From Vibrio alginolyticus NBRC 15630 = ATCC 17749 (lineage in GTDB: Bacteria; Pseudomonadota; Gammaproteobacteria; Enterobacterales; Vibrionaceae), in the NCBI RefSeq assembly GCF_000354175.2, contig NC_022349.1:1560001-1592000 (forward strand): a stretch of DNA of 32,000 bases, read 5' to 3'. The position numbers and the translations under genes were made by a program. Position 1 is the first letter of the stretch, and every line of letters begins with the position of its first letter. Positions 3,161 to 30,156 of the stretch are shown here, piece by piece. Below the pieces are notes generated by a model. The model saw nothing but the letters and a program-made list of their open reading frames with translations, did no database searches and was not told the origin of the DNA.

Positions 3161-3283
3161 AACGTTTCATTTTGCACCCTTTATCACTTTCATTTGGGAT
3201 TTTTATCGCTATTATTCCCGCCAATTGGAAAGCGCAGCACAGATTGCGTGTTCTGAATCATTACAAACATAGAGAGTCCCCTT

Positions 3284-4081
3284 ATGCGTAAATCACTTTT
3301 AGCTCTTAGCCTTCTAGCGGCTACTTCAGCTCCAGTTATGGCGGCAGATTACTCTGACGGCGATATTCACAAAAACGATTACAAGTGGATGCAATTTAAC
3401 CTAATGGGTGCATTTGACGAACTTCCAGGTGAGTCTTCACACGACTACCTAGAAATGGAATTCGGCGGCCGCTCTGGTATCTTCGACCTTTACGGCTACG
3501 TTGATGTATTCAACCTAACTTCTGATCCAGGTAGCGACAAAGCTGGCGCAGAGAAGATCTTTATGAAATTCGCTCCACGTATGTCTCTAGATGCGGTAAC
3601 TGGTAAAGACCTATCTTTCGGTCCAGTTCAAGAGCTATACGTTGCAACTCTAATCGAGTGGGGTGGTAACTCTGGTGTTAACTCTCAAAAAATCGGTCTA
3701 GGTTCTGACGTAATGGTTCCTTGGTTTGGTAAAGTTGGTGTTAACCTATACGGCACTTACGACGGCAACAAAAAGGATTGGAACGGTTTCCAAATCTCGA
3801 CTAACTGGTTCAAACCATTCTACTTCTTCGAGAACGGTTCATTCATTTCTTACCAAGGCTACATCGATTACCAATTCGGTATGGATGATGATGCTGGTAA
3901 CAAGTTTGGTTCAACCGCGTCAAACGGTGGTGCAATGTTCAACGGTATCTACTGGCACTCAGACCGCTTCGCAGTGGGTTACGGTCTAAAAGGTTACAAA
4001 GACGTGTACGGTATCAAAGATACTGATGGGTTCAAGTCAACTGGCTTTGGCCACTACCTTGCTGTAACTTACAAGTTCTAA
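3284..4081 (+). CDS. ompK: Tsx-family outer-membrane nucleoside channel, Vibrio OmpK
   Basis: Signal peptide MRKSLLALSLLAATSAPVMA-ADY. The mature sequence (DYSDGDIHKNDYKWMQFNLMG..., terminal YKF) matches my memory of Vibrio OmpK, the KVP40 phage receptor of the Tsx family. Strong terminator downstream. Confidence 0.9.
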   Translation: MRKSLLALSLLAATSAPVMAADYSDGDIHKNDYKWMQFNLMGAFDELPGESSHDYLEMEFGGRSGIFDLYGYVDVFNLTSDPGSDKAGAEKIFMKFAPRMSLDAVTGKDLSFGPVQELYVATLIEWGGNSGVNSQKIGLGSDVMVPWFGKVGVNLYGTYDGNKKDWNGFQISTNWFKPFYFFENGSFISYQGYIDYQFGMDDDAGNKFGSTASNGGAMFNGIYWHSDRFAVGYGLKGYKDVYGIKDTDGFKSTGFGHYLAVTYKF

Positions 4082-4101
4082 TTGAACCACTAAGTTTGCT
4101 C

Positions 4102-4134
4102 AAAAATGGCGCCTTTCGGCGCCATTTTTATTTG
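4102..4134 (+). terminator. Rho-independent terminator of ompK
   Basis: AAAAATGGCGCC-TTTC-GGCGCCATTTTTATTT: a perfect GC-rich stem, a tetraloop and a T-run. Confidence 0.9.
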
Positions 4135-4186
4135 CTTTCCTTTTTTCCCTCATTATCCTTGCAGCAAACCTTTTTAATGAGAGCGT

Positions 4187-5080
4187 TTGGTGAATATCCT
4201 TATCCTCGGTCCAGGTGCGGTGGGCTCACTCTGGGCAACAAAATTTAAGCTTGCCGGGCACAATGTTTCATTGTGGGGAAGAAGTTCTGAAAGCCAACAA
4301 TCACTTCAGTTGGATGACACACCCGCAATCGTATTCAGTAATCAAGATATTTCCTCCGTAAATAAAGCAGATCTCATTTTGATCACGGTAAAAGCTTGGC
4401 AAGTGGAAGACGCCATTCAGCCTTTGCTCCCTCATATCAATACAGACACGATTATCATGCTGATGCACAATGGTATGGGTACTGCCTCTGCCTTGGAGAA
4501 GGTTGTGCCAAACAATCCGATAGTGCTCGCAACAACGACGCACGGCGCATACAAACCAGATAACCAACACGTATTGCATACCGGTCACGGAACAACGCAA
4601 GCGGGTGGTTATAATGACAAAGGAATGCAGTGCGCTTTTCTGCAAGATGTTATGCATCATGCTCTTCCAGAGGTCATTTGGAATCCACACATCCAATCTG
4701 CGTTATGGACTAAGTTAGCAATTAACTGCGCGATTAACCCACTGACTGCGATTCACCAGTGTAAGAATGGTGAGCTTGCGCAGCCCGAGTTTAAGATACA
4801 ACTCGAAAGCATCACTCAAGAACTGGTTGAAGTAATGAGTAAAGAAGGTATTGCTATCGAGTTTCGCTCTCTTTTCGATACGGTAATGCAAGTGGTGAAC
4901 GCCACAGCTGAGAACTATTCTTCAATGAGGCAAGACGTATTCCATCAACGTCGAACGGAAATTGATTTTATAACCGGATACTTGTTAAAGGCTGCCGAGA
5001 AACATCGTATCAATACGCCTGAGAATTTAAAACTTTACCAACGCATCAAACAAATAGAACAAAGCTGGACAGAACAATGA
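4187..5080 (+). CDS. panE: 2-dehydropantoate 2-reductase
   Basis: N-terminal Rossmann motif ILILGPGAVGSLWA. ITVKAWQVEDA aligns with E. coli PanE VTLKAWQVSDA. Non-ATG start (TTG 4187 or GTG 4190). Adjacent to yajL, as in E. coli. Confidence 0.88.
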   Translation: MVNILILGPGAVGSLWATKFKLAGHNVSLWGRSSESQQSLQLDDTPAIVFSNQDISSVNKADLILITVKAWQVEDAIQPLLPHINTDTIIMLMHNGMGTASALEKVVPNNPIVLATTTHGAYKPDNQHVLHTGHGTTQAGGYNDKGMQCAFLQDVMHHALPEVIWNPHIQSALWTKLAINCAINPLTAIHQCKNGELAQPEFKIQLESITQELVEVMSKEGIAIEFRSLFDTVMQVVNATAENYSSMRQDVFHQRRTEIDFITGYLLKAAEKHRINTPENLKLYQRIKQIEQSWTEQ

Positions 5081-5676
5081 GTAAGAAAATCTTAGTGCCA
5101 ATAGCTCCAGGCACCGAAGAAATGGAAGCCGTCACCGTTATCGACATGATGGTTCGCGCGGGTTATGACGTTACAGTAGCGAGTGCTGCTTTTGATGGCT
5201 CATTGACGATGAAAGCTTCTCGCGGAGTCACACTAACTGCCGATTGTAAGCTAGTCGATATCGCTGATGATGAGTTTGACGCCATAGCGCTTTCTGGTGG
5301 TGTTGGTGGTGCAGAAATTTTTCGTGATAGCACGGTGATGATAGAAATCCTTAAGCAGCACATCTACGAGGGAAAATTGGTCGCTGCTATCTGCGCAGCA
5401 CCGGCGTTGGTATTGCAACACCATGATCTTTTCCCACAATCACTGATGACCTGTCACCCGAGCTTTCAGTCACATATCCCGGAAGAGAAGTGGCGCAGCA
5501 AACGCGTGACCTTTGATATCAACCACAACCTGATCACCAGTCAAGGTCCGGGTACAGCTTTAGAGTTCGCGATGGAAGTAATCATTCAACTCTCAGGTAA
5601 AAAACACGCATGGTCAGTTGCTGAACCAATGATCCCTCTGCCTACTCTGCACTACCACAAGCTTGGTGAAGAATAA
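5077..5676 (+). CDS. yajL: DJ-1/PfpI family protein deglycase YajL (ThiJ)
   Basis: Close full-length similarity to E. coli YajL as I recall it (APGTEEMEAVTVID, AAICAAPALVL with the nucleophile Cys, TSQGPGTALEF). ATGA overlap with the panE stop. Confidence 0.88.
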   Translation: MSKKILVPIAPGTEEMEAVTVIDMMVRAGYDVTVASAAFDGSLTMKASRGVTLTADCKLVDIADDEFDAIALSGGVGGAEIFRDSTVMIEILKQHIYEGKLVAAICAAPALVLQHHDLFPQSLMTCHPSFQSHIPEEKWRSKRVTFDINHNLITSQGPGTALEFAMEVIIQLSGKKHAWSVAEPMIPLPTLHYHKLGEE

Positions 5677-6887
5677 TGTTTGACGTAAATGCTGTACGCG
5701 AGCAATTTCCTGCTCTAAACCAATCCGTCAACGATACGCCCTTAGTGTATCTAGATAGCGCAGCGACAACGCAAAAACCGCAATGTGTGATTAATGTCAT
5801 CAGTCATTACTACAGTGCGCAAAATGCCAATGTTCACCGTGGCAGCCATAGTTTAACGGCTAATGCCACCAGCCAATTTGAAGCGGCACGAGAACGAGTG
5901 GCAAGCTTTATTGGTGCAAACAGCTCTAAAGAGATCATTTGGACACGGGGCGCAACCGAAGCACTGAACTTAATTGCTCAAACCTACGCCCGTAGCACGT
6001 TACAACCAGGTGATGAGATCTTGATTAGCGAGATGGAGCACCACGCCAACATCGTGCCCTGGCAAATCGTGGCAGAGCAAACGGGTGCTAAAGTCATTAA
6101 AGTTCCGATGACATCAGATTGCCAGTTCGACATCAGTGCATTTGAGGCGCTTCTGTCTGACCGCTGTAAAATTGTTGCTTGCGCGCAAATAACCAACGTA
6201 ACAGGCACACGCCAACCTATCGAAAAAATCACTGAACTGGCGCACAACGTTGGCGCGGTTATTGTAGTTGATGGCGCGCAAGGCATCGTACATGAGCAAC
6301 TTGATTTATCGGCATCAGATATCGATTTCTACGTTTTCTCAGGTCACAAACTTTATGCACCAGCAGGCATTGGGGTTTTATACGGCAAGCTTAAACTTTT
6401 GGAAGCCATGCCACCATGGCACGGCGGCGGTAAAATGGTTGAACGTGTTTCTTTCGAGAAAACGACGTTTTCTGCACTTCCTGGTAAATTTGAAGCGGGC
6501 ACACCAAACGTTGCGGGCGCGATTGCTCTAGCGAAAGCCATTGAGTGGTACCAAGGTTTTAACCATCACGAAGTAGAGGATCATCTCCATGTGCTTCAGG
6601 ATAAGGCCTACCAAGCACTAAGCGCTTTGGATGACATCCATATTCTAGGCTATCAACCGAATGCCTCTGTACTGACGTTCGTCATGGACGGCGTTCATCA
6701 CCAAGACATGGCGACGCTGCTCGATCAACAAGGCATTGCGGTACGAGCAGGACACCACTGCGCTCACCCATTGATGGATGCGCTAAACGTTAAAGGCACG
6801 GTACGCGTTTCTTTTGGTATTTATAACACGGCTGAAGATGTGGATAGACTCATCGCCGCCGTAGAAAAAGCCGTCGACATGCTATAA
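5676..6887 (+). CDS. csdA: Cysteine desulfurase, class II (CsdA/SufS family)
   Basis: FPAL...VYLDSAATTQKP, the PLP-lysine context FSGHKLYAPAGIGVLYG, and the active-site loop RAGHHCAHPLM. 403 aa. The TAATG junction overlaps the yajL stop by 1 nt. The choice of CsdA over SufS is inferred from the nearby csdE and tcdA. Confidence 0.85.
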   Translation: MFDVNAVREQFPALNQSVNDTPLVYLDSAATTQKPQCVINVISHYYSAQNANVHRGSHSLTANATSQFEAARERVASFIGANSSKEIIWTRGATEALNLIAQTYARSTLQPGDEILISEMEHHANIVPWQIVAEQTGAKVIKVPMTSDCQFDISAFEALLSDRCKIVACAQITNVTGTRQPIEKITELAHNVGAVIVVDGAQGIVHEQLDLSASDIDFYVFSGHKLYAPAGIGVLYGKLKLLEAMPPWHGGGKMVERVSFEKTTFSALPGKFEAGTPNVAGAIALAKAIEWYQGFNHHEVEDHLHVLQDKAYQALSALDDIHILGYQPNASVLTFVMDGVHHQDMATLLDQQGIAVRAGHHCAHPLMDALNVKGTVRVSFGIYNTAEDVDRLIAAVEKAVDML

Positions 6888-25202: not shown

Positions 25203-26177
25203 TTAAGCGTGATGAGCGTGCATCAAGCGTGGTTGAATCAACAAGTTGTTGATGTATTGTAAGGCCACATAAGAGACAACAAATGTTGCCACAATCAACT
25301 CAAGACCAGCTAAGCCGCGCACTTGTTGAACATAGTGCGCAGCCAATCCTTGCAACTCCATCCAATTCGCCATTTTAAACAGAGCCGTCGCACCGATCAC
25401 CATCGGGAAGGTAAACGCTGCATAGCCAGGGCTGAATGGCAGTCTAAGCAATTTAAAGAACGCGAGATATATGATGGCTGTCATCAATACCGCGATACCA
25501 AATAGCATAGCGATGATCACTGGTGATGGTGTCGCAGTGACCGTTAAGTACCCTGCCAATGATAGACTTGCTGGCGCTGCCATGATTGCCATTGTTGGTT
25601 TCGCTGCATCCGGAATTTCATGGGTGAACATGAAACGGTAAATCATCATCGGCAACATGATCGCGTACGCCACCATACCAAACATCAATGCACCTTGTGC
25701 CACTGGTGCTAGCATCGGGTTGCCAGAGAAAGACACATCCGCAACGATGATACCCACAGGCGGTACAAACCAACTAGGAACCATGTGGTGCAATTCAAAA
25801 TCTTTGGCGCGATGGTAAACAAAGCTCACCAAGAATACGATGTGCAAAACCACCGCAATCAGCCAAAGCGCATCGCCAGCTAATGGGTAAAAATGGCCGA
25901 GAGAGTTCGATACCACCATAGTGCCCATCGCAAATGTCGGAACCACGCTGCCCACAACCGGATGAGCAAGATCTTGTCTCAATAGATGATTATGTAGCAA
26001 AAACTTGGTTGCCAATATAGCCAACAATATGCTCGCGATACCCGCACTAATCCACTGTCCGTAGCCATGTAATTCGGCGAAGTTTTCCCAACTCCAGCCC
26101 AAGCTTGCAATACCAAGAGCCAAACCCGCCATTGGAGTTGGTGCTCCCATTACTTTTGCTTTTGTTCTTTGAATCAT
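25203..26177 (-). CDS. TDT (tellurite-resistance/dicarboxylate transporter, TehA/SLAC1-like) family membrane transporter
   Basis: A roughly 10-TM hydrophobic protein. The N-terminal MGAPTPMAGLALGIASLGWSWE is typical of TehA-like proteins. The start is taken at ATG 26177 (GAGG Shine-Dalgarno 6 nt upstream). The ORF track uses GTG 26198. Confidence 0.8.
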   Translation of the reverse strand: MIQRTKAKVMGAPTPMAGLALGIASLGWSWENFAELHGYGQWISAGIASILLAILATKFLLHNHLLRQDLAHPVVGSVVPTFAMGTMVVSNSLGHFYPLAGDALWLIAVVLHIVFLVSFVYHRAKDFELHHMVPSWFVPPVGIIVADVSFSGNPMLAPVAQGALMFGMVAYAIMLPMMIYRFMFTHEIPDAAKPTMAIMAAPASLSLAGYLTVTATPSPVIIAMLFGIAVLMTAIIYLAFFKLLRLPFSPGYAAFTFPMVIGATALFKMANWMELQGLAAHYVQQVRGLAGLELIVATFVVSYVALQYINNLLIQPRLMHAHHA

Positions 26178-26207
26178 GATGACCTCAACCAGACTCACTC
26201 TTTATGG

Positions 26208-26286: not shown

Positions 26287-27213
26287 ATGGCAAGTCACAT
26301 TTCTCTTAAACAACTGAAAGTGTTTACGACGATCACGCAGCACAAAACGCTCACAGCAGCTTCTGATAGTCTCTTTTTATCAAAAGCCGCTGTGAGCATG
26401 GCACTCTCAGAATTAGAAAAGCAGATCGGCCATCACTTGTTTGATCGTGTTAATAACCGACTGATTTTGAACCAAGAAGGTCAAAAGCTACTGCCACTGG
26501 CGGATGAATTACTCAACCGAGCCAAGGACATCGAGAGCATTTTCGATGGTGACCAAGCGCTATCGGGCCAACTTCGCATTGGTGCCAGCGACACCATTGG
26601 CAACCAAGTCGCGCCCTATTTGCTTAGCGAATTTCGTCAGCAAACGAACCATCGTTCTCAAAGCCTGTTCATTTCTAACTCCGCACAAATCTGCGACATG
26701 CTGACCGATTACGAGTTAGACATAGCCCTCATTGAAGGCAAAACACTTCACCCTGAATTGCAGTCTACCCAGTTTAGCGAAGATGAAATGTGCGTGATTT
26801 GCGCGACCAATTCCCCAGCCGCGCACGAAGGGCCAGTAAACTTAACCGAGCTAGAAAACAGTGAATGGATATTGCGAGAGGCAGGCTCTGGTTCACGCGA
26901 ATTTTTTATGCGCGTTGTCGCGCCGCGCTTGGAACATTGGCATGAAGCTTTTCAGCTCAATACCACCGAAGCGCTGATCAACTCAGTATCGGCAGGGTTA
27001 GGCTTAGGTTGCTTGTCACGTTTGTCTGCAGAACCTGCTATTCGTGACGGCCGCGTAAAACTGCTCGACATGCCTTTAGATATGAAACGTCGCTTCTGGT
27101 TACTGGTTCATAAAGAGAAATATCAAAGCCCATTGCTCAAAACGTTTATCGAATTTTGCCAAGATTGGGAGCGACCAACAAACCTTCCTTTGGCGGACAA
27201 ATCCGCAAAGTGA
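26287..27213 (+). CDS. LysR-family transcriptional regulator
   Basis: N-terminal wHTH (LKQLKVFTTITQHKTLTAASDSLFLSKAAVSMALSELEKQIGHHLFDR) plus a LysR substrate-binding domain. Divergent from the TDT transporter, the usual LTTR-target layout. Confidence 0.9.
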   Translation: MASHISLKQLKVFTTITQHKTLTAASDSLFLSKAAVSMALSELEKQIGHHLFDRVNNRLILNQEGQKLLPLADELLNRAKDIESIFDGDQALSGQLRIGASDTIGNQVAPYLLSEFRQQTNHRSQSLFISNSAQICDMLTDYELDIALIEGKTLHPELQSTQFSEDEMCVICATNSPAAHEGPVNLTELENSEWILREAGSGSREFFMRVVAPRLEHWHEAFQLNTTEALINSVSAGLGLGCLSRLSAEPAIRDGRVKLLDMPLDMKRRFWLLVHKEKYQSPLLKTFIEFCQDWERPTNLPLADKSAK

Positions 27214-27766: not shown

Positions 27767-27796
27767 TTGCGGATTAGTGTGACTTAGATCTAGTCT
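27767..27796 (+). promoter_or_regulatory. Candidate sigma-70 promoter for the riboswitch-led operon
   Basis: TTGCGG (27767-72), an 18-bp spacer, and TAGTCT (27791-96). This predicts a start near 27803, exactly where the aptamer P1 helix begins. Both hexamers are weak. Confidence 0.3.
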
Positions 27797-27802
27797 AAAT
27801 GG

Positions 27803-27867
27803 GTCCGGTGATGGGGTGCCACCGGAATCGAAAGATTCGAACCGCTGTTAAAGCTAATGACTCCTAC
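27803..27867 (+). promoter_or_regulatory. Fluoride riboswitch aptamer (crcB motif RNA)
   Basis: P1 is UCCGGUG (27804-10) paired with CACCGGA (27820-26). The loop context GAUGGGGUGC (27810-19) compares with the remembered consensus GAUGGnGUUC. The linker has AACCGC (27840-45). P3 is GCU (27844-46) paired with AGC (27852-54). The 3' conserved block is CUAAUGACUCCUAC (27854-67). The pseudoknot pairs GGGGU (27813-17) with ACUCC (27860-64), including one G-U. The only atypical feature is a 14-nt mini-hairpin (GAAUC-GAAA-GAUUC) in the P1-P3 linker. The comparison is from memory of published crcB-motif sequences and no covariance-model search was run. Confidence 0.8.
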
Positions 27868-27939
27868 AGAAACGAAAACAGGTCAGCCCTGTTGGAAGTG
27901 CTTTCGCTTATGTTGTGAAAGCGAGAGTTCTGTAGTGAG
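27861..27939 (+). promoter_or_regulatory. Anti-aptamer three-way-junction helix of the riboswitch expression platform
   Basis: CUCCUACAGAA (27861-71) pairs with UUCUGUAG-u-GAG (27928-39), giving 11 bp with one bulge. This sequesters the pseudoknot 3' strand. The helix encloses hairpins AACAGG/CCUGUU (27877-82/27888-93) and GCUUUC/GAAAGC (27900-05/27917-22). No U-tract follows. Confidence 0.55.
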
Positions 27940-28132
27940 CAATTCAACTCTTCTCCAACCCCGCTCCTGTTTTCTCAAAAATTAAAAAGATATCCAAAAT
28001 AGTTGTTAACTCAACAAGGCGACAAACGCATGAACCTCCTGAACATAGTTTTCTATTTGATGGAGCGAATAAGAGCAGTCAACGCCGTTGAGACTGACAA
28101 ATAGGCTGGATATCGTACACTGGGAAAACATT

Positions 28133-28825
28133 ATGCAATATTCACACGAAATCCAATCAATGTGCCCGATTCAACGCGGCGAGCTTCATGCATCTGCACC
28201 GATCCCTGTTGAAGGCGCAATGATCAATCCAAAAGACGTTATCGCGATTTCTGGTCTTAGCCACGGAGTTGGCGCTTGTGCTCCTCAACAAGGCGCAGCA
28301 AAACTGACCCTTAACGTCAAAAACGGCATCATCGAAGAAGCTTTGATCGAAACGATCGGCTGTTCAGGCATGACTCAATCAGCAGCGATGGCCGCAGAAA
28401 TCCTAACAGGCAAAACCATTCTTGAAGCACTGAATACCGACTTGGTATGTGATGCTATTAACGTCGCGATGCGCGAAATCTTCCTTCAATTTGTTTACGG
28501 TCGTACGCAATCTGCTTTCTCTGAAGGCGGCTTAGAAATTGGTGCGGCATTGGAAGATCTTGGTCAAACTCAACGCAGCCAAGTGGGTACTAGCTACTCA
28601 ACCAAAGCAAAAGGCGTGCGTTACATGGAGTTGGCTGAAGGCTATGTAACAAAACTCGCGCTAGACGAAAACAAAGAAGTGATTGGTTACCAATATCTCA
28701 ACCTCGGCAAGATGATGAAAGCCATCAACGAAGGCGTATCTGCTGCAGAAGCCGCAGACAAAGCGACGGGGACTTACGGTCGTTTTGACGAAGCCGTAAC
28801 TACCATCAACCCACGCCAACAATAA
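28133..28825 (+). CDS. IscU/NifU N-terminal-domain-like putative Fe-S/metal scaffold protein
   Basis: Three Cys in IscU-like spacing and context: GVGACAPQQG, ETIGCSGMTQSAAMAAE, and DLVCDAIN after GKTILEALN. 230 aa from ATG 28133 (GGGA 8 nt upstream). The ORF-track TTG 28088 start is less likely. Confidence 0.7.
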   Translation: MQYSHEIQSMCPIQRGELHASAPIPVEGAMINPKDVIAISGLSHGVGACAPQQGAAKLTLNVKNGIIEEALIETIGCSGMTQSAAMAAEILTGKTILEALNTDLVCDAINVAMREIFLQFVYGRTQSAFSEGGLEIGAALEDLGQTQRSQVGTSYSTKAKGVRYMELAEGYVTKLALDENKEVIGYQYLNLGKMMKAINEGVSAAEAADKATGTYGRFDEAVTTINPRQQ

Positions 28826-28848
28826 TTGCCACCAAGAGGAAAGAGATT

Positions 28849-29832
28849 ATGAACACTCCAATTACTGAATCTGTACGTCGCACATTAGACGAAATGCAAC
28901 TTTCTTCTCTGGAAGAGGCTTACCAATACTGTATGGATCGTGGTATCGACCCTAAAGCACTAGTGATGGACACTCAACCTATCGCGTTTGAAAGCGCTGC
29001 CGATGCCTACACGCTAGGCACTGCTTTGGCGATTTTCCGCGTAGCAAAAACAGCTGAAGAAGCTGCAAACATCATCGGTGAAGGCCTTCAAGCCTGCACA
29101 AAACCAGGCAGCGTCGCAGAACAACGCCGAGTGGGTATCGGTCACGGTGCATTGGCGGCTCGTCTATTGAATGAAGAAAGTGGCTGTTTCGCTTTCCTTG
29201 CGGGCCATGAGTCATTCGCAGCGGCAGAAGGCGCTATCAAAATCGCATTGAACGTGAACAAGTCACGAAAAAATCCGTTGAAAGTTATCCTAAATGGCTT
29301 GGGTAAAGACGCCGCTTACCTAATCTCACGCATCAATGGTTTCACTTACGTACGCACTCAGTACAACTACCAAACTGGTGAGTTAGTGGAAGTAGAACGT
29401 CGCCGTTTCTCCCAAGGTCCACGTGGTGAGATCCTTTGCTACGGTGCAGACGATGTACGTGAAGGCGTGGCTATTATGCATAAAGAACAAGTGGACGTGA
29501 GTATCACTGGTAACTCGACTAACCCGACTCGCTTCCAGCACCCAGTTGCCGGTATCTACAAAGCAGAGCGTAACCGTGAAGGCATGCCTTACTTCTCTGT
29601 GGCATCAGGCGGTGGTACTGGTCGTACTCTACACCCAGATAACGTGGCGGCAGGCCCTGCCTCTTACGGCATGACAGACACTATGGGTCGCATGCACGCC
29701 GATGCGCAATTCGCGGGTAGCTCTTCAGTACCAGCACACGTAGCGATGATGGGCTTTATCGGTATGGGCAACAATCCAATGGTAGGTGCAACTGTTGCAC
29801 TTGCTGTGGAGGTCGGTGAGCTAAGCCTCTAA
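28849..29832 (+). CDS. GGGtGRT-motif protein, function unknown
   Basis: Contains the family-defining VASGGGTGRTLHPDNV. 327 aa. Strong AAGAGGAAAGAG Shine-Dalgarno, 23 nt after the upstream stop, and native-looking codon usage. The family name is from memory. Confidence 0.8.
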   Translation: MNTPITESVRRTLDEMQLSSLEEAYQYCMDRGIDPKALVMDTQPIAFESAADAYTLGTALAIFRVAKTAEEAANIIGEGLQACTKPGSVAEQRRVGIGHGALAARLLNEESGCFAFLAGHESFAAAEGAIKIALNVNKSRKNPLKVILNGLGKDAAYLISRINGFTYVRTQYNYQTGELVEVERRRFSQGPRGEILCYGADDVREGVAIMHKEQVDVSITGNSTNPTRFQHPVAGIYKAERNREGMPYFSVASGGGTGRTLHPDNVAAGPASYGMTDTMGRMHADAQFAGSSSVPAHVAMMGFIGMGNNPMVGATVALAVEVGELSL

Positions 29833-29885
29833 GTCGATTTATCGCTTTACTATCCAAAGCCAGTAAATCCAACAAACCCAGTGTA

Positions 29886-29918
29886 GGGGGAGTGACTTCG
29901 GTCCTCCCCTTATTTTTT
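29886..29918 (+). terminator. Rho-independent terminator of the IscU-like/GGGtGRT operon
   Basis: GGGGGAGUGAC-UUCG-GUCCUCCCC (one bulged U, UUCG tetraloop) followed by UUAUUUUUU. Confidence 0.88.
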
Positions 29919-30156
29919 GCTATGCCCCCTTCTCCAACTTCACTTTGTCTTTACCCCAAACCGGTCTGAGAAGGCTTTTGCGACACATTTCTCATCAGAC
30001 AAACATATCTCTAAAAAGACAAAAGGTATCCATCTACGGACTTTCTCCATTTCCCCTCTTTAAACTCCCGAACACTCTCTTTATGATGACTGACAACTTA
30101 ATTATTTCTTGTCAGTGAACAGACGAGACACAAGACTCAACACATGGAGATCAACT

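Follow-up and report, generated by a model that had tools for sequence, protein, structure and literature searches.

Why would a marine bacterium place two genes behind a fluoride riboswitch when their soluble products neither export fluoride nor duplicate any enzyme known to be fluoride-sensitive? The question is raised by a locus of Vibrio alginolyticus NBRC 15630 = ATCC 17749, analyzed here within a window of 32,000 nucleotides (contig NC_022349.1, positions 1,560,001 to 1,592,000 of the forward strand; coordinates below count from the first letter of this window). A fluoride aptamer (27798-27873), a 259-nt leader, two open reading frames (ORF1, 28133-28825; ORF2, 28849-29832) and an intrinsic terminator (29883-29919) follow one another on the plus strand and form one unit. 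ORF1 encodes a soluble protein of 230 amino acids related to the IscU/NifU fold, and ORF2 a soluble GGGtGRT protein (PF14057) of 327 amino acids. Our answer is tentative and falls just short of an even chance: in Vibrio, the pair may be a fluoride-induced enzyme of two subunits, dependent on metal, that makes up for a metabolic step poisoned by fluoride.

The composition of the unit is clear. The aptamer, which is the sole Rfam match in the window, aligns with the fluoride riboswitch model over its full length (RF01734, model positions 1-64 of 64, cmscan) and reaches 51.9 bits where the gathering score is 34 (E 8e-12). A survey of the window found no further ORF with homologues between aptamer and terminator, and the terminator hairpin (29883-29913), followed by a U-run (UUAUUUUUU), folds with -20.2 kcal/mol (z -4.07). 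These results bear out an earlier interpretation made from the letters of this DNA, here called the sequence-only reading, according to which only two genes lie between the aptamer and a strong terminator. The tight linkage that it described is likewise confirmed, as the 23-nt intergenic gap carries a Shine-Dalgarno sequence (AGAGGA, 28835-28840) 8 nt before the ATG of ORF2.

Is the association of aptamer and genes conserved? To the window were compared 80 GGGtGRT loci from species-representative genomes, 9 loci found by exact protein look-up and 80 metagenome loci retrieved with ORF1 as the query; this census is a sample, and its counts hold among the matches listed. RF01734 matches of 35-60 bits are located upstream of the pair and on the same strand in the window and in at least 11 genome loci: V. 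fluminensis (L001), V. satsumensis (L002), Aliivibrio sifiae (L003), two Shewanella (L004, L005), two Photobacterium (L006, L044), Parasalinivibrio (L042), Motilimonas (L063), Moritella (L082) and V. cincinnatiensis (L087). A structure-aware descriptor, which gave no false positives in 956 kb searched on both strands, adds a further five, namely a second Moritella and four marine metagenome contigs. The arrangement is thereby found in at least 17 loci including the window, i.e. 16 further ones, from seven genera (Vibrio, Aliivibrio, Photobacterium, Parasalinivibrio, Moritella, Shewanella, Motilimonas).

At the gathering threshold, RF01734 is absent from 65 scanned loci, most of them from anaerobes. 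They comprise 40 anaerobe genome loci, 20 metagenome loci and five others (Flammeovirga, Niameybacter, a Psychromonas metagenome-assembled genome, an invertebrate-metagenome contig and a Clostridia locus); a descriptor search of the remaining loci also returned no aptamer. In a neighbour-joining tree of the small protein, every riboswitch-bearing locus falls within one ‘marine’ clade, which additionally holds three aptamer-less loci (Flammeovirga, the Psychromonas genome and the invertebrate-metagenome contig). A general lack of the aptamer before orthologous cassettes, which the sequence-only reading had named as evidence against its proposal, is therefore what the neighbourhood count reveals for the family as a whole and not what it reveals within the marine clade.

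Within that clade, the aptamer has been maintained while its surroundings changed. Its pseudoknot pairs GGGGT with ACTCC in one type of leader (window, Vibrio, Shewanella, Aliivibrio, Moritella, Motilimonas) and GATGT with ACGTC in another (Photobacterium, Parasalinivibrio, V. cincinnatiensis), a double compensatory change affecting two pairs. Apart from the aptamer, the leaders have diverged beyond alignment. In combination, these comparisons are strong evidence of selection on the aptamer at this site upstream of the cassette. Fluoride control of the cassette, as we infer it, appears to be real and conserved within the marine gammaproteobacterial clade. The conserved aptamer link and its compensatory changes thus uphold the notion of a fluoride-controlled cassette, whereas the notion of a dedicated fluoride system is lost: the module is ubiquitous and occurs mostly in anaerobes.

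How might the aptamer act on the genes? Thermodynamic models and covariation indicate that the leader, whose expression platform overlaps the aptamer 3′ strand, is likely a translational ON switch. Downstream of the aptamer there is neither a hairpin of the terminator kind with its U-run nor a U-run behind the alternative helix. In the RNAalifold consensus, six Vibrio, Aliivibrio and Shewanella leaders share a helix, TGTTTTCYYA:TRRGAAAACA, which has compensatory changes at two base pairs and whose TRRGAAAACA arm spans the Shine-Dalgarno region, 3-12 nt before the ATG of ORF1. In the window, the arms of this sequestor correspond to TGTTTTCTCA (27968-27977, inverted repeat I2) and TGGGAAAACA (28121-28130). 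Directly 3′ of the aptamer lies GARAACAGG, the complement of CYTGTTTTC in the sequestor 5′ arm. This anti-sequestor reads GAAAACAGG in the window (27874-27882) and is complementary to CCTGTTTTC at 27966-27974. Sequestor and anti-sequestor elements are present in 10 of the 11 Vibrio/Aliivibrio/Shewanella-type leaders.

Folding is consistent with two alternative states. In the unconstrained minimum free energy (MFE) structures of the window, L001, L003, L004 and L005, the aptamer tail (CUCCUACAGAA) pairs with a downstream GUUCUGUAG(U)GAG and the Shine-Dalgarno region is buried, with 9-10 of its 11 nt paired. The putative anti-aptamer strand of the window, GTTCTGTAGTGAG (27927-27939), would accordingly pair with the 3′ tail CTCCTACAGAAAC in the ligand-free state. 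When the aptamer nucleotides are barred from outward pairing, which mimics the fluoride-bound pseudoknot, GAAAACAGG pairs with CCUGUUUUC; the paired nucleotides of the Shine-Dalgarno region then number 3 of 11 in the window (9 in the free fold), 4 in L001, 0 in L004 and 3 in L005, and release is merely partial in L003. Without fluoride, the aptamer 3′ tail would thus pair with the downstream strand, and the conserved helix would hide the site where ribosomes bind ORF1. Binding of fluoride would keep the tail in the pseudoknot, and the adjacent anti-sequestor would pair with the 5′ side of the sequestor, freeing that site.

The window leader is unusually long, at 259 nt compared to 73-210 nt in other loci, because an imperfect palindrome of about 125 nt (27989-28114; arms 27989-28006 and 28097-28114, 78% complementary) is inserted in the sequestor loop. 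L001-L005 lack the insertion, whereas two metagenome contigs nearly identical to the window, L090 and L091, carry it; on this comparison, it is species-specific. No second copy is located within the window. It also holds a 24-codon ORF (28031-28105, MNLLNIVFYLMERIRAVNAVETDK), which may be fortuitous. An insertion of this kind could have uncoupled the switch and left the aptamer as a relic in this strain, as the exceptional leader length might suggest. We regard this as very improbable given that the aptamer retains its high score and an intact pseudoknot, that both sequestor arms and the anti-sequestor are also intact, and that the constrained fold still frees the Shine-Dalgarno region while the inserted stretch forms a hairpin of its own.

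What, then, does the switch deploy? Fluoride-riboswitch regulons include genes for crcB/Fluc, eriC-F/CLC-F, an extra enolase, a pyrophosphatase and others; Baker et al. in 2012 reportedly described them as exporters together with fluoride-sensitive or compensating enzymes. The present pair does not belong to the first category. Both proteins have a maximum Kyte-Doolittle score of 1.2 over 19 residues and no predicted transmembrane segment, in contrast to the polytopic CrcB/Fluc and CLC-F proteins. As there are no hydrophobic segments, the pair are not exporters.

The two proteins appear to form a single module. Their genes are adjacent and in the same order in 162 of the 163 informative loci (those with a sufficiently long contig), with a median gap of about 39 nt. 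Hosts include Gammaproteobacteria, Collinsella (Actinobacteria), Bacteroidales, Clostridia, Erysipelotrichales and Treponema. Conservation of 98% or above is seen at about 40% of positions in a comparison that covers Proteobacteria, Actinobacteria, Bacteroidota, Firmicutes and Spirochaetes, comprising 89 of 230 in the small protein (114 unique sequences) and 139 of 327 in the large one (100 unique sequences). Other than the pair itself, no conserved neighbour was detected in the 4-kb flanks of 46 non-redundant loci. Some individual loci show peculiarities. An antisense ORF of up to 589 amino acids runs across the pair in nine loci (e.g. L007, 3221-4990, minus strand), with hosts including Collinsella, Treponema, Oscillospiraceae and Negativibacillus; codon composition most likely accounts for this frame, which we do not regard as a gene. 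In Niameybacter (Clostridia; L084, 1-2405), the pair is directly downstream of an operon for a ZnuA/ABC-3-type metal ABC transporter, a single observation, and a phage-type integrase gene lies downstream of the pair.

The identity of ORF2 as a GGGtGRT protein, proposed on the basis of its SGGGTGRT signature (residues 253-260), is firmly established by a PF14057 match of 553.7 bits (gathering score 27) over profile positions 9-326 of 327. Among 100 unique sequences, a large set of potential metal ligands is universally conserved: H99, C113, H120, E121, E127, D154, D202, E205, H231, H262, D264, D277, H283, D285 and H297. The family stands alone. Searches by sequence or profile returned no PDB match even at E 10, and an exhaustive HMMER search of 1.84 billion representative proteins detected no remote relatives. 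Clustering at 50% identity yields essentially one full-length cluster; the remaining HMMER matches comprise a few full-length clusters, the rest being fragments and, where checked, chimeras. An AlphaFold2 model (predicted local distance difference test score, pLDDT, 76) features a helical domain at the N-terminus and an alpha/beta domain that resembles a Rossmann fold. Descent of the GGGTG motif from FtsZ/tubulin (GGGTGTG) or PFK/NAD-kinase (GGDG) was rejected, with hhalign probabilities of 0.6% and 0.2%. Apparent fusions of GGGtGRT to ABC_tran, Tex, SusD, GGDEF, phosphorylase and creatinase domains were also dismissed, as they join partial domains to partial GGGtGRT sequences and hence are assembly chimeras, from which nothing about function can be learned. 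Examples from the metagenome protein library are P0244, P0270, P0284, P0301, P0246 and P0263, and the near-identity of the gene across species possibly promotes such artefacts.

The small protein is more difficult to place. ORF1 matches NifU_N (PF01592) marginally, with 25 bits against a cut-off of 22 over residues 32-102, and its PDB matches to IscU are confined to residues 30-102 (E 3e-5, A. aeolicus IscU, 2z7e). Scores against the NCBIfam equivalogs of IscU, NifU and SufU are far under the respective cut-offs: 24 versus 192.4 for TIGR01999, 30.7 versus 187.9 for TIGR03419, 19.6 versus 92.5 for TIGR01994 and 16.4 versus 273.3 for TIGR02000. ORF1 homologues have the same length of 230 amino acids and start with MQYS, and a Vibrio rotiferianus protein is 99% identical, which places this DNA in the Harveyi group of Vibrio. 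In 114 unique sequences, H44, C49, C77 and C106 are universally conserved, with C11 and H19 also invariant in a set of 15. A structure model of the small protein has a mean pLDDT of 55 and is unusable.

Compared with U-type scaffolds (IscU, the NifU N-domain, SufU), the small protein is alike over about 70 residues, in the GC(S/G) motif at the second ligand cysteine and in having three universally conserved cysteines and a histidine. It differs in a conserved C-terminal half of 125 residues that contains no known domain and in the displacement of its first and third cysteines. Of the four cysteines in ORF1 (11, 49, 77, 106), C77 (GCSG) alone coincides with a ligand position of canonical IscU. 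The position of the CGD motif reads PQQG, C106 falls in a helix (aligned to a helix residue of 4eb5) about 15 residues before the cysteine of the ‘HC’ motif, and neither LPPVK nor HC was present in the alignment to IscU. Moreover, U-type scaffolds differ in their genetic context: the 46 loci with 4-kb flanks contain no associated gene for a cysteine desulfurase (IscS/NifS/SufS), the constant partner being GGGtGRT. On the grounds of score, motifs and gene association, ORF1 is not to be filed as IscU, NifU or SufU. By these sequence comparisons, it is not an IscU/NifU equivalog, and the designation ‘iron-sulfur (Fe-S) scaffold’ is an inferred likeness as opposed to family membership. Two elements of the sequence-only reading need to be revised as a result. 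The 230-residue protein with cysteines as in IscU/NifU retains its length and a weak NifU_N match, and the claimed cysteine arrangement holds only loosely; likewise, its scaffold-like label retains distant similarity and not the CGD, LPPVK and HC signatures or a desulfurase neighbour.

Published observations provide the physiological setting. Many gut anaerobes express the GGGtGRT protein and its NifU partner at high levels in vivo (PMC11204068). In Bacteroides thetaiotaomicron, the orthologous BT0173-BT0174 genes are down 11- to 13-fold in iron limitation (PMC10434189), and the GGGtGRT protein of C. pasteurianum increases with iron (PMC5395762). A screen for lost glucose-dependent silencing of the regulator Cur yielded transposon mutants of BT0173-4 alongside those of pfkA (bioRxiv 10.64898/2026.04.10.717545). 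A 2025 paper still calls the function of GGGtGRT unclear (PMC12078515), and the earlier statement that the biochemical role of these uncharacterized proteins is undefined was accurate. The association with the riboswitch had been seen before in passing, ahead of the discovery of the ligand: Weinberg et al. 2010 named ‘iscU’ among the genes associated with crcB-motif RNAs in their supplementary text, tied the ‘iscU’ of such operons to oxidative-stress responses and included aptamers of exactly this type from Aliivibrio fischeri and A. salmonicida in their alignment (PMC2864571). Our literature search, which did not extend to Baker et al. 2012, found nothing that links GGGtGRT proteins with fluoride or follows up ‘iscU’. 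Whether the association had been catalogued, which the sequence-only reading left undecided, is thereby answered: it had been, in passing.

These data bear on whether the pair serves Fe-S biogenesis or repair. The IscU-fold protein could be a specialized U-type scaffold or carrier with GGGtGRT as its partner, induced as a back-up when fluoride compromises cluster supply through Fe3+ complexation, metal-fluoride species or accompanying acid stress. The NifU_N/IscU homology over residues 30-102, the conserved Cys3/His set, the strong iron dependence in Bacteroides and Clostridium (PMC10434189, PMC5395762) and the oxidative-stress context suggested for ‘iscU’ (PMC2864571) are compatible with such a role. 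We nevertheless consider it unlikely. In addition to the low equivalog scores, the misplaced canonical CGD, LPPVK and HC signatures and the lack of a conserved cysteine desulfurase or chaperone gene nearby, scaffolds do not usually have an obligate partner that is larger, more conserved and rich in His/Asp, nor are they usually so abundant. Furthermore, repression when iron is scarce is more readily expected of an enzyme that consumes iron than of an assembly factor. A two-subunit metallo-enzyme tied to sugar catabolism is a better explanation than a generic Fe-S scaffold for the abundance, the iron dependence, the extreme constraint and the His/Asp/Glu-rich and Cys3/His residue sets. Combined with the known logic of fluoride regulons, these features make a compensating enzyme the most likely role in Vibrio.

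On the compensating-enzyme interpretation, both products would act together as one soluble metal-dependent protein, probably with an Fe-S cluster, in which the small subunit would be a Cys3/His protein of the IscU fold and the large subunit would contribute a site of invariant His, Asp and Glu residues. Anaerobic fermenters would make this protein constitutively and in abundance, in response to iron and in connection with sugar catabolism. The marine Gammaproteobacteria, in contrast, would switch the module on only upon a rise in cytoplasmic fluoride; it would then most likely perform or rescue a step of central carbon or phosphoryl metabolism for which the usual enzyme depends on Mg2+ and is inhibited by fluoride. 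It would thus resemble the extra enolases and pyrophosphatases under riboswitch control in other bacteria, as opposed to an exporter or a general Fe-S assembly scaffold. A more specific version is rather unlikely: the pair may be a previously unrecognized, intrinsically fluoride-insensitive metallo-enzyme with an Fe-S cluster and a His/Asp metal site, which acts in central carbon or phosphoryl metabolism and is constitutive in anaerobes and deployed by riboswitch in marine Gammaproteobacteria as a bypass of a poisoned enzyme of the enolase or pyrophosphatase type. The protection, repair or bypass function suggested in the sequence-only reading is retained here as regards apparent fluoride control and a soluble uncharacterized pair, and amended in that the module is a housekeeping pair of anaerobes and not a canonical Fe-S scaffold.

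Several observations caution against accepting a compensating enzyme too readily. Metal or cluster binding is deduced solely from conserved residues and iron regulation. The AlphaFold2 prediction leaves segment 254-302 (GGGTGRT, HPDN, MHADAQ), the most conserved part of GGGtGRT, unmodelled, with a pLDDT below 50 in the motif region, and a Foldseek search of the PDB yielded no significant match (best E 0.026). With respect to the switch, the mechanism depends on thermodynamic folding, which cannot model a pseudoknot, and neither L002 nor the Photobacterium-type leaders show clean release of the Shine-Dalgarno region in MFE structures. The aptamer is missing from 65 scanned loci beyond the marine clade or at its margin, counting the three that the tree places within it, and the core role of the protein pair is therefore not fluoride-specific. 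Finally, B. thetaiotaomicron BT0173-4 mutants grow normally on glucose, and the signalling effect is 2-fold (bioRxiv 10.64898/2026.04.10.717545).

This distribution invites the question of whether fluoride is a proxy signal. The riboswitch might serve to time an oxygen-sensitive fermentative enzyme, borrowed from anaerobes, with no tie to fluoride toxicity; the premise is that cytoplasmic fluoride builds up only in acidic medium, where hydrogen fluoride (HF) enters, and that such conditions coincide with anaerobic fermentation in Vibrio-like bacteria. Seawater contains tens of micromolar fluoride, the home range of the module is in strictly fermentative anaerobes with constitutive expression, and in the loci sampled riboswitch control is limited to facultatively anaerobic marine genera, all of which would fit. 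However, we know of no other riboswitch class that acts as a proxy of such kind, and control of the FNR/ArcA type would be the obvious solution for an anaerobic enzyme. We assign this explanation a low probability.

A CLC-F-type exporter gene beside the pair in one locus, the V. cincinnatiensis-type L087, also hints at a true fluoride context, although the evidence is circumstantial. This CLC gene (4596-5693) is located 360 nt downstream of the pair, behind a terminator hairpin, and encodes GNNL and GREGT motifs, which we take to be those of the ‘NT’ class of CLC-F fluoride/proton antiporters; Brammer et al. in 2014 reportedly found that these motifs mark this class. No fluoride riboswitch precedes the gene, and no CLC homologue was found beside the pair in any other sampled locus. 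In the same locus, the GGGtGRT gene (3239-4234) is split into ORFs of 144 and 165 amino acids, reflecting a frameshift pseudogene or an assembly error. A true fluoride context might be taken further, to a complex that itself binds, sequesters or chemically transforms fluoride or metal-fluoride species. We think this most unlikely. The riboswitch link and the invariant residues rich in metal ligands are all that favour it, the family is overwhelmingly free of fluoride control, and abundant constitutive expression in gut anaerobes points to a housekeeping role.

The surroundings of the unit are unexceptional. A promoter-like site read from the sequence (TTGCGG, 18 nt, TAGTCT; 27767-27796, plus strand) lies directly 5′ of the aptamer; a consensus promoter scan missed it, and elements resembling TTGCNN...TA(A/G)TCT/TAATAT occupy the equivalent place in L002 and L003. 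The neighbouring genes have housekeeping functions, with that of YebG upstream and dapD downstream. Further upstream are genes for a LysR regulator, a SLAC1/TehA-type channel and a DUF3413-sulfatase. The anion channel gene (25203-26198, minus strand) is divergent from the LysR gene (26287-27213, plus strand), two genes upstream of the riboswitch, and there is no evidence tying the channel gene to the fluoride unit. Recent horizontal transfer of the cassette was rejected on the basis of its GC content of 46-51%, which is like that of its surroundings. Elsewhere, tandem arrays of near-identical tRNA genes are located about 1-2 kb upstream of the riboswitch-cassette unit, with six genes in Moritella (L082, 418-1569, minus strand) and five in Motilimonas (L063, 773-1259, plus strand).

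If the more specific version, a fluoride-insensitive metallo-enzyme, were true, an orphan protein that is among the most abundant in gut and rumen microbiomes would gain a function. GGGtGRT ranks with the most strongly expressed proteins in Bacteroides, Prevotella/Segatella, Clostridia and further anaerobes of gut and rumen, and is nearly frozen in sequence over five phyla while its function is still called unclear. A riboswitch tells when a gene product is needed; here, in one clade, this would be when fluoride rises. Fluoride would thereby provide a first experimental handle on the pair, namely NaF sensitivity in a tractable Vibrio or in Aliivibrio fischeri. Besides enolase, pyrophosphatase and the exporters, such work could bring to light another target of fluoride toxicity or another way around it.

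The closest relatives of this module and of its control are found in different places. The Bacteroides BT0173-BT0174 pair (GGGtGRT and ‘NifU’) is orthologous, about 65-70% identical and of the same adjacency, as seen in Bacteroides and Segatella loci; it differs from the Vibrio pair in having no riboswitch, in being regulated by iron and in its implication in glucose-dependent silencing of Cur. In contrast, the likeness to fluoride-riboswitch regulons lies in the control. They share with the Vibrio unit the aptamer family at full model length, the position in a 5′ leader before same-strand genes and the logic of an ON switch. The platform differs in that it looks translational, with a Shine-Dalgarno sequestor and anti-sequestor and no terminator overlapping the aptamer. 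The cargo differs as well. While the sensor and its ON logic are known, what is new is the effector, an orphan two-protein module that does not export fluoride and does not duplicate a recognized fluoride target.

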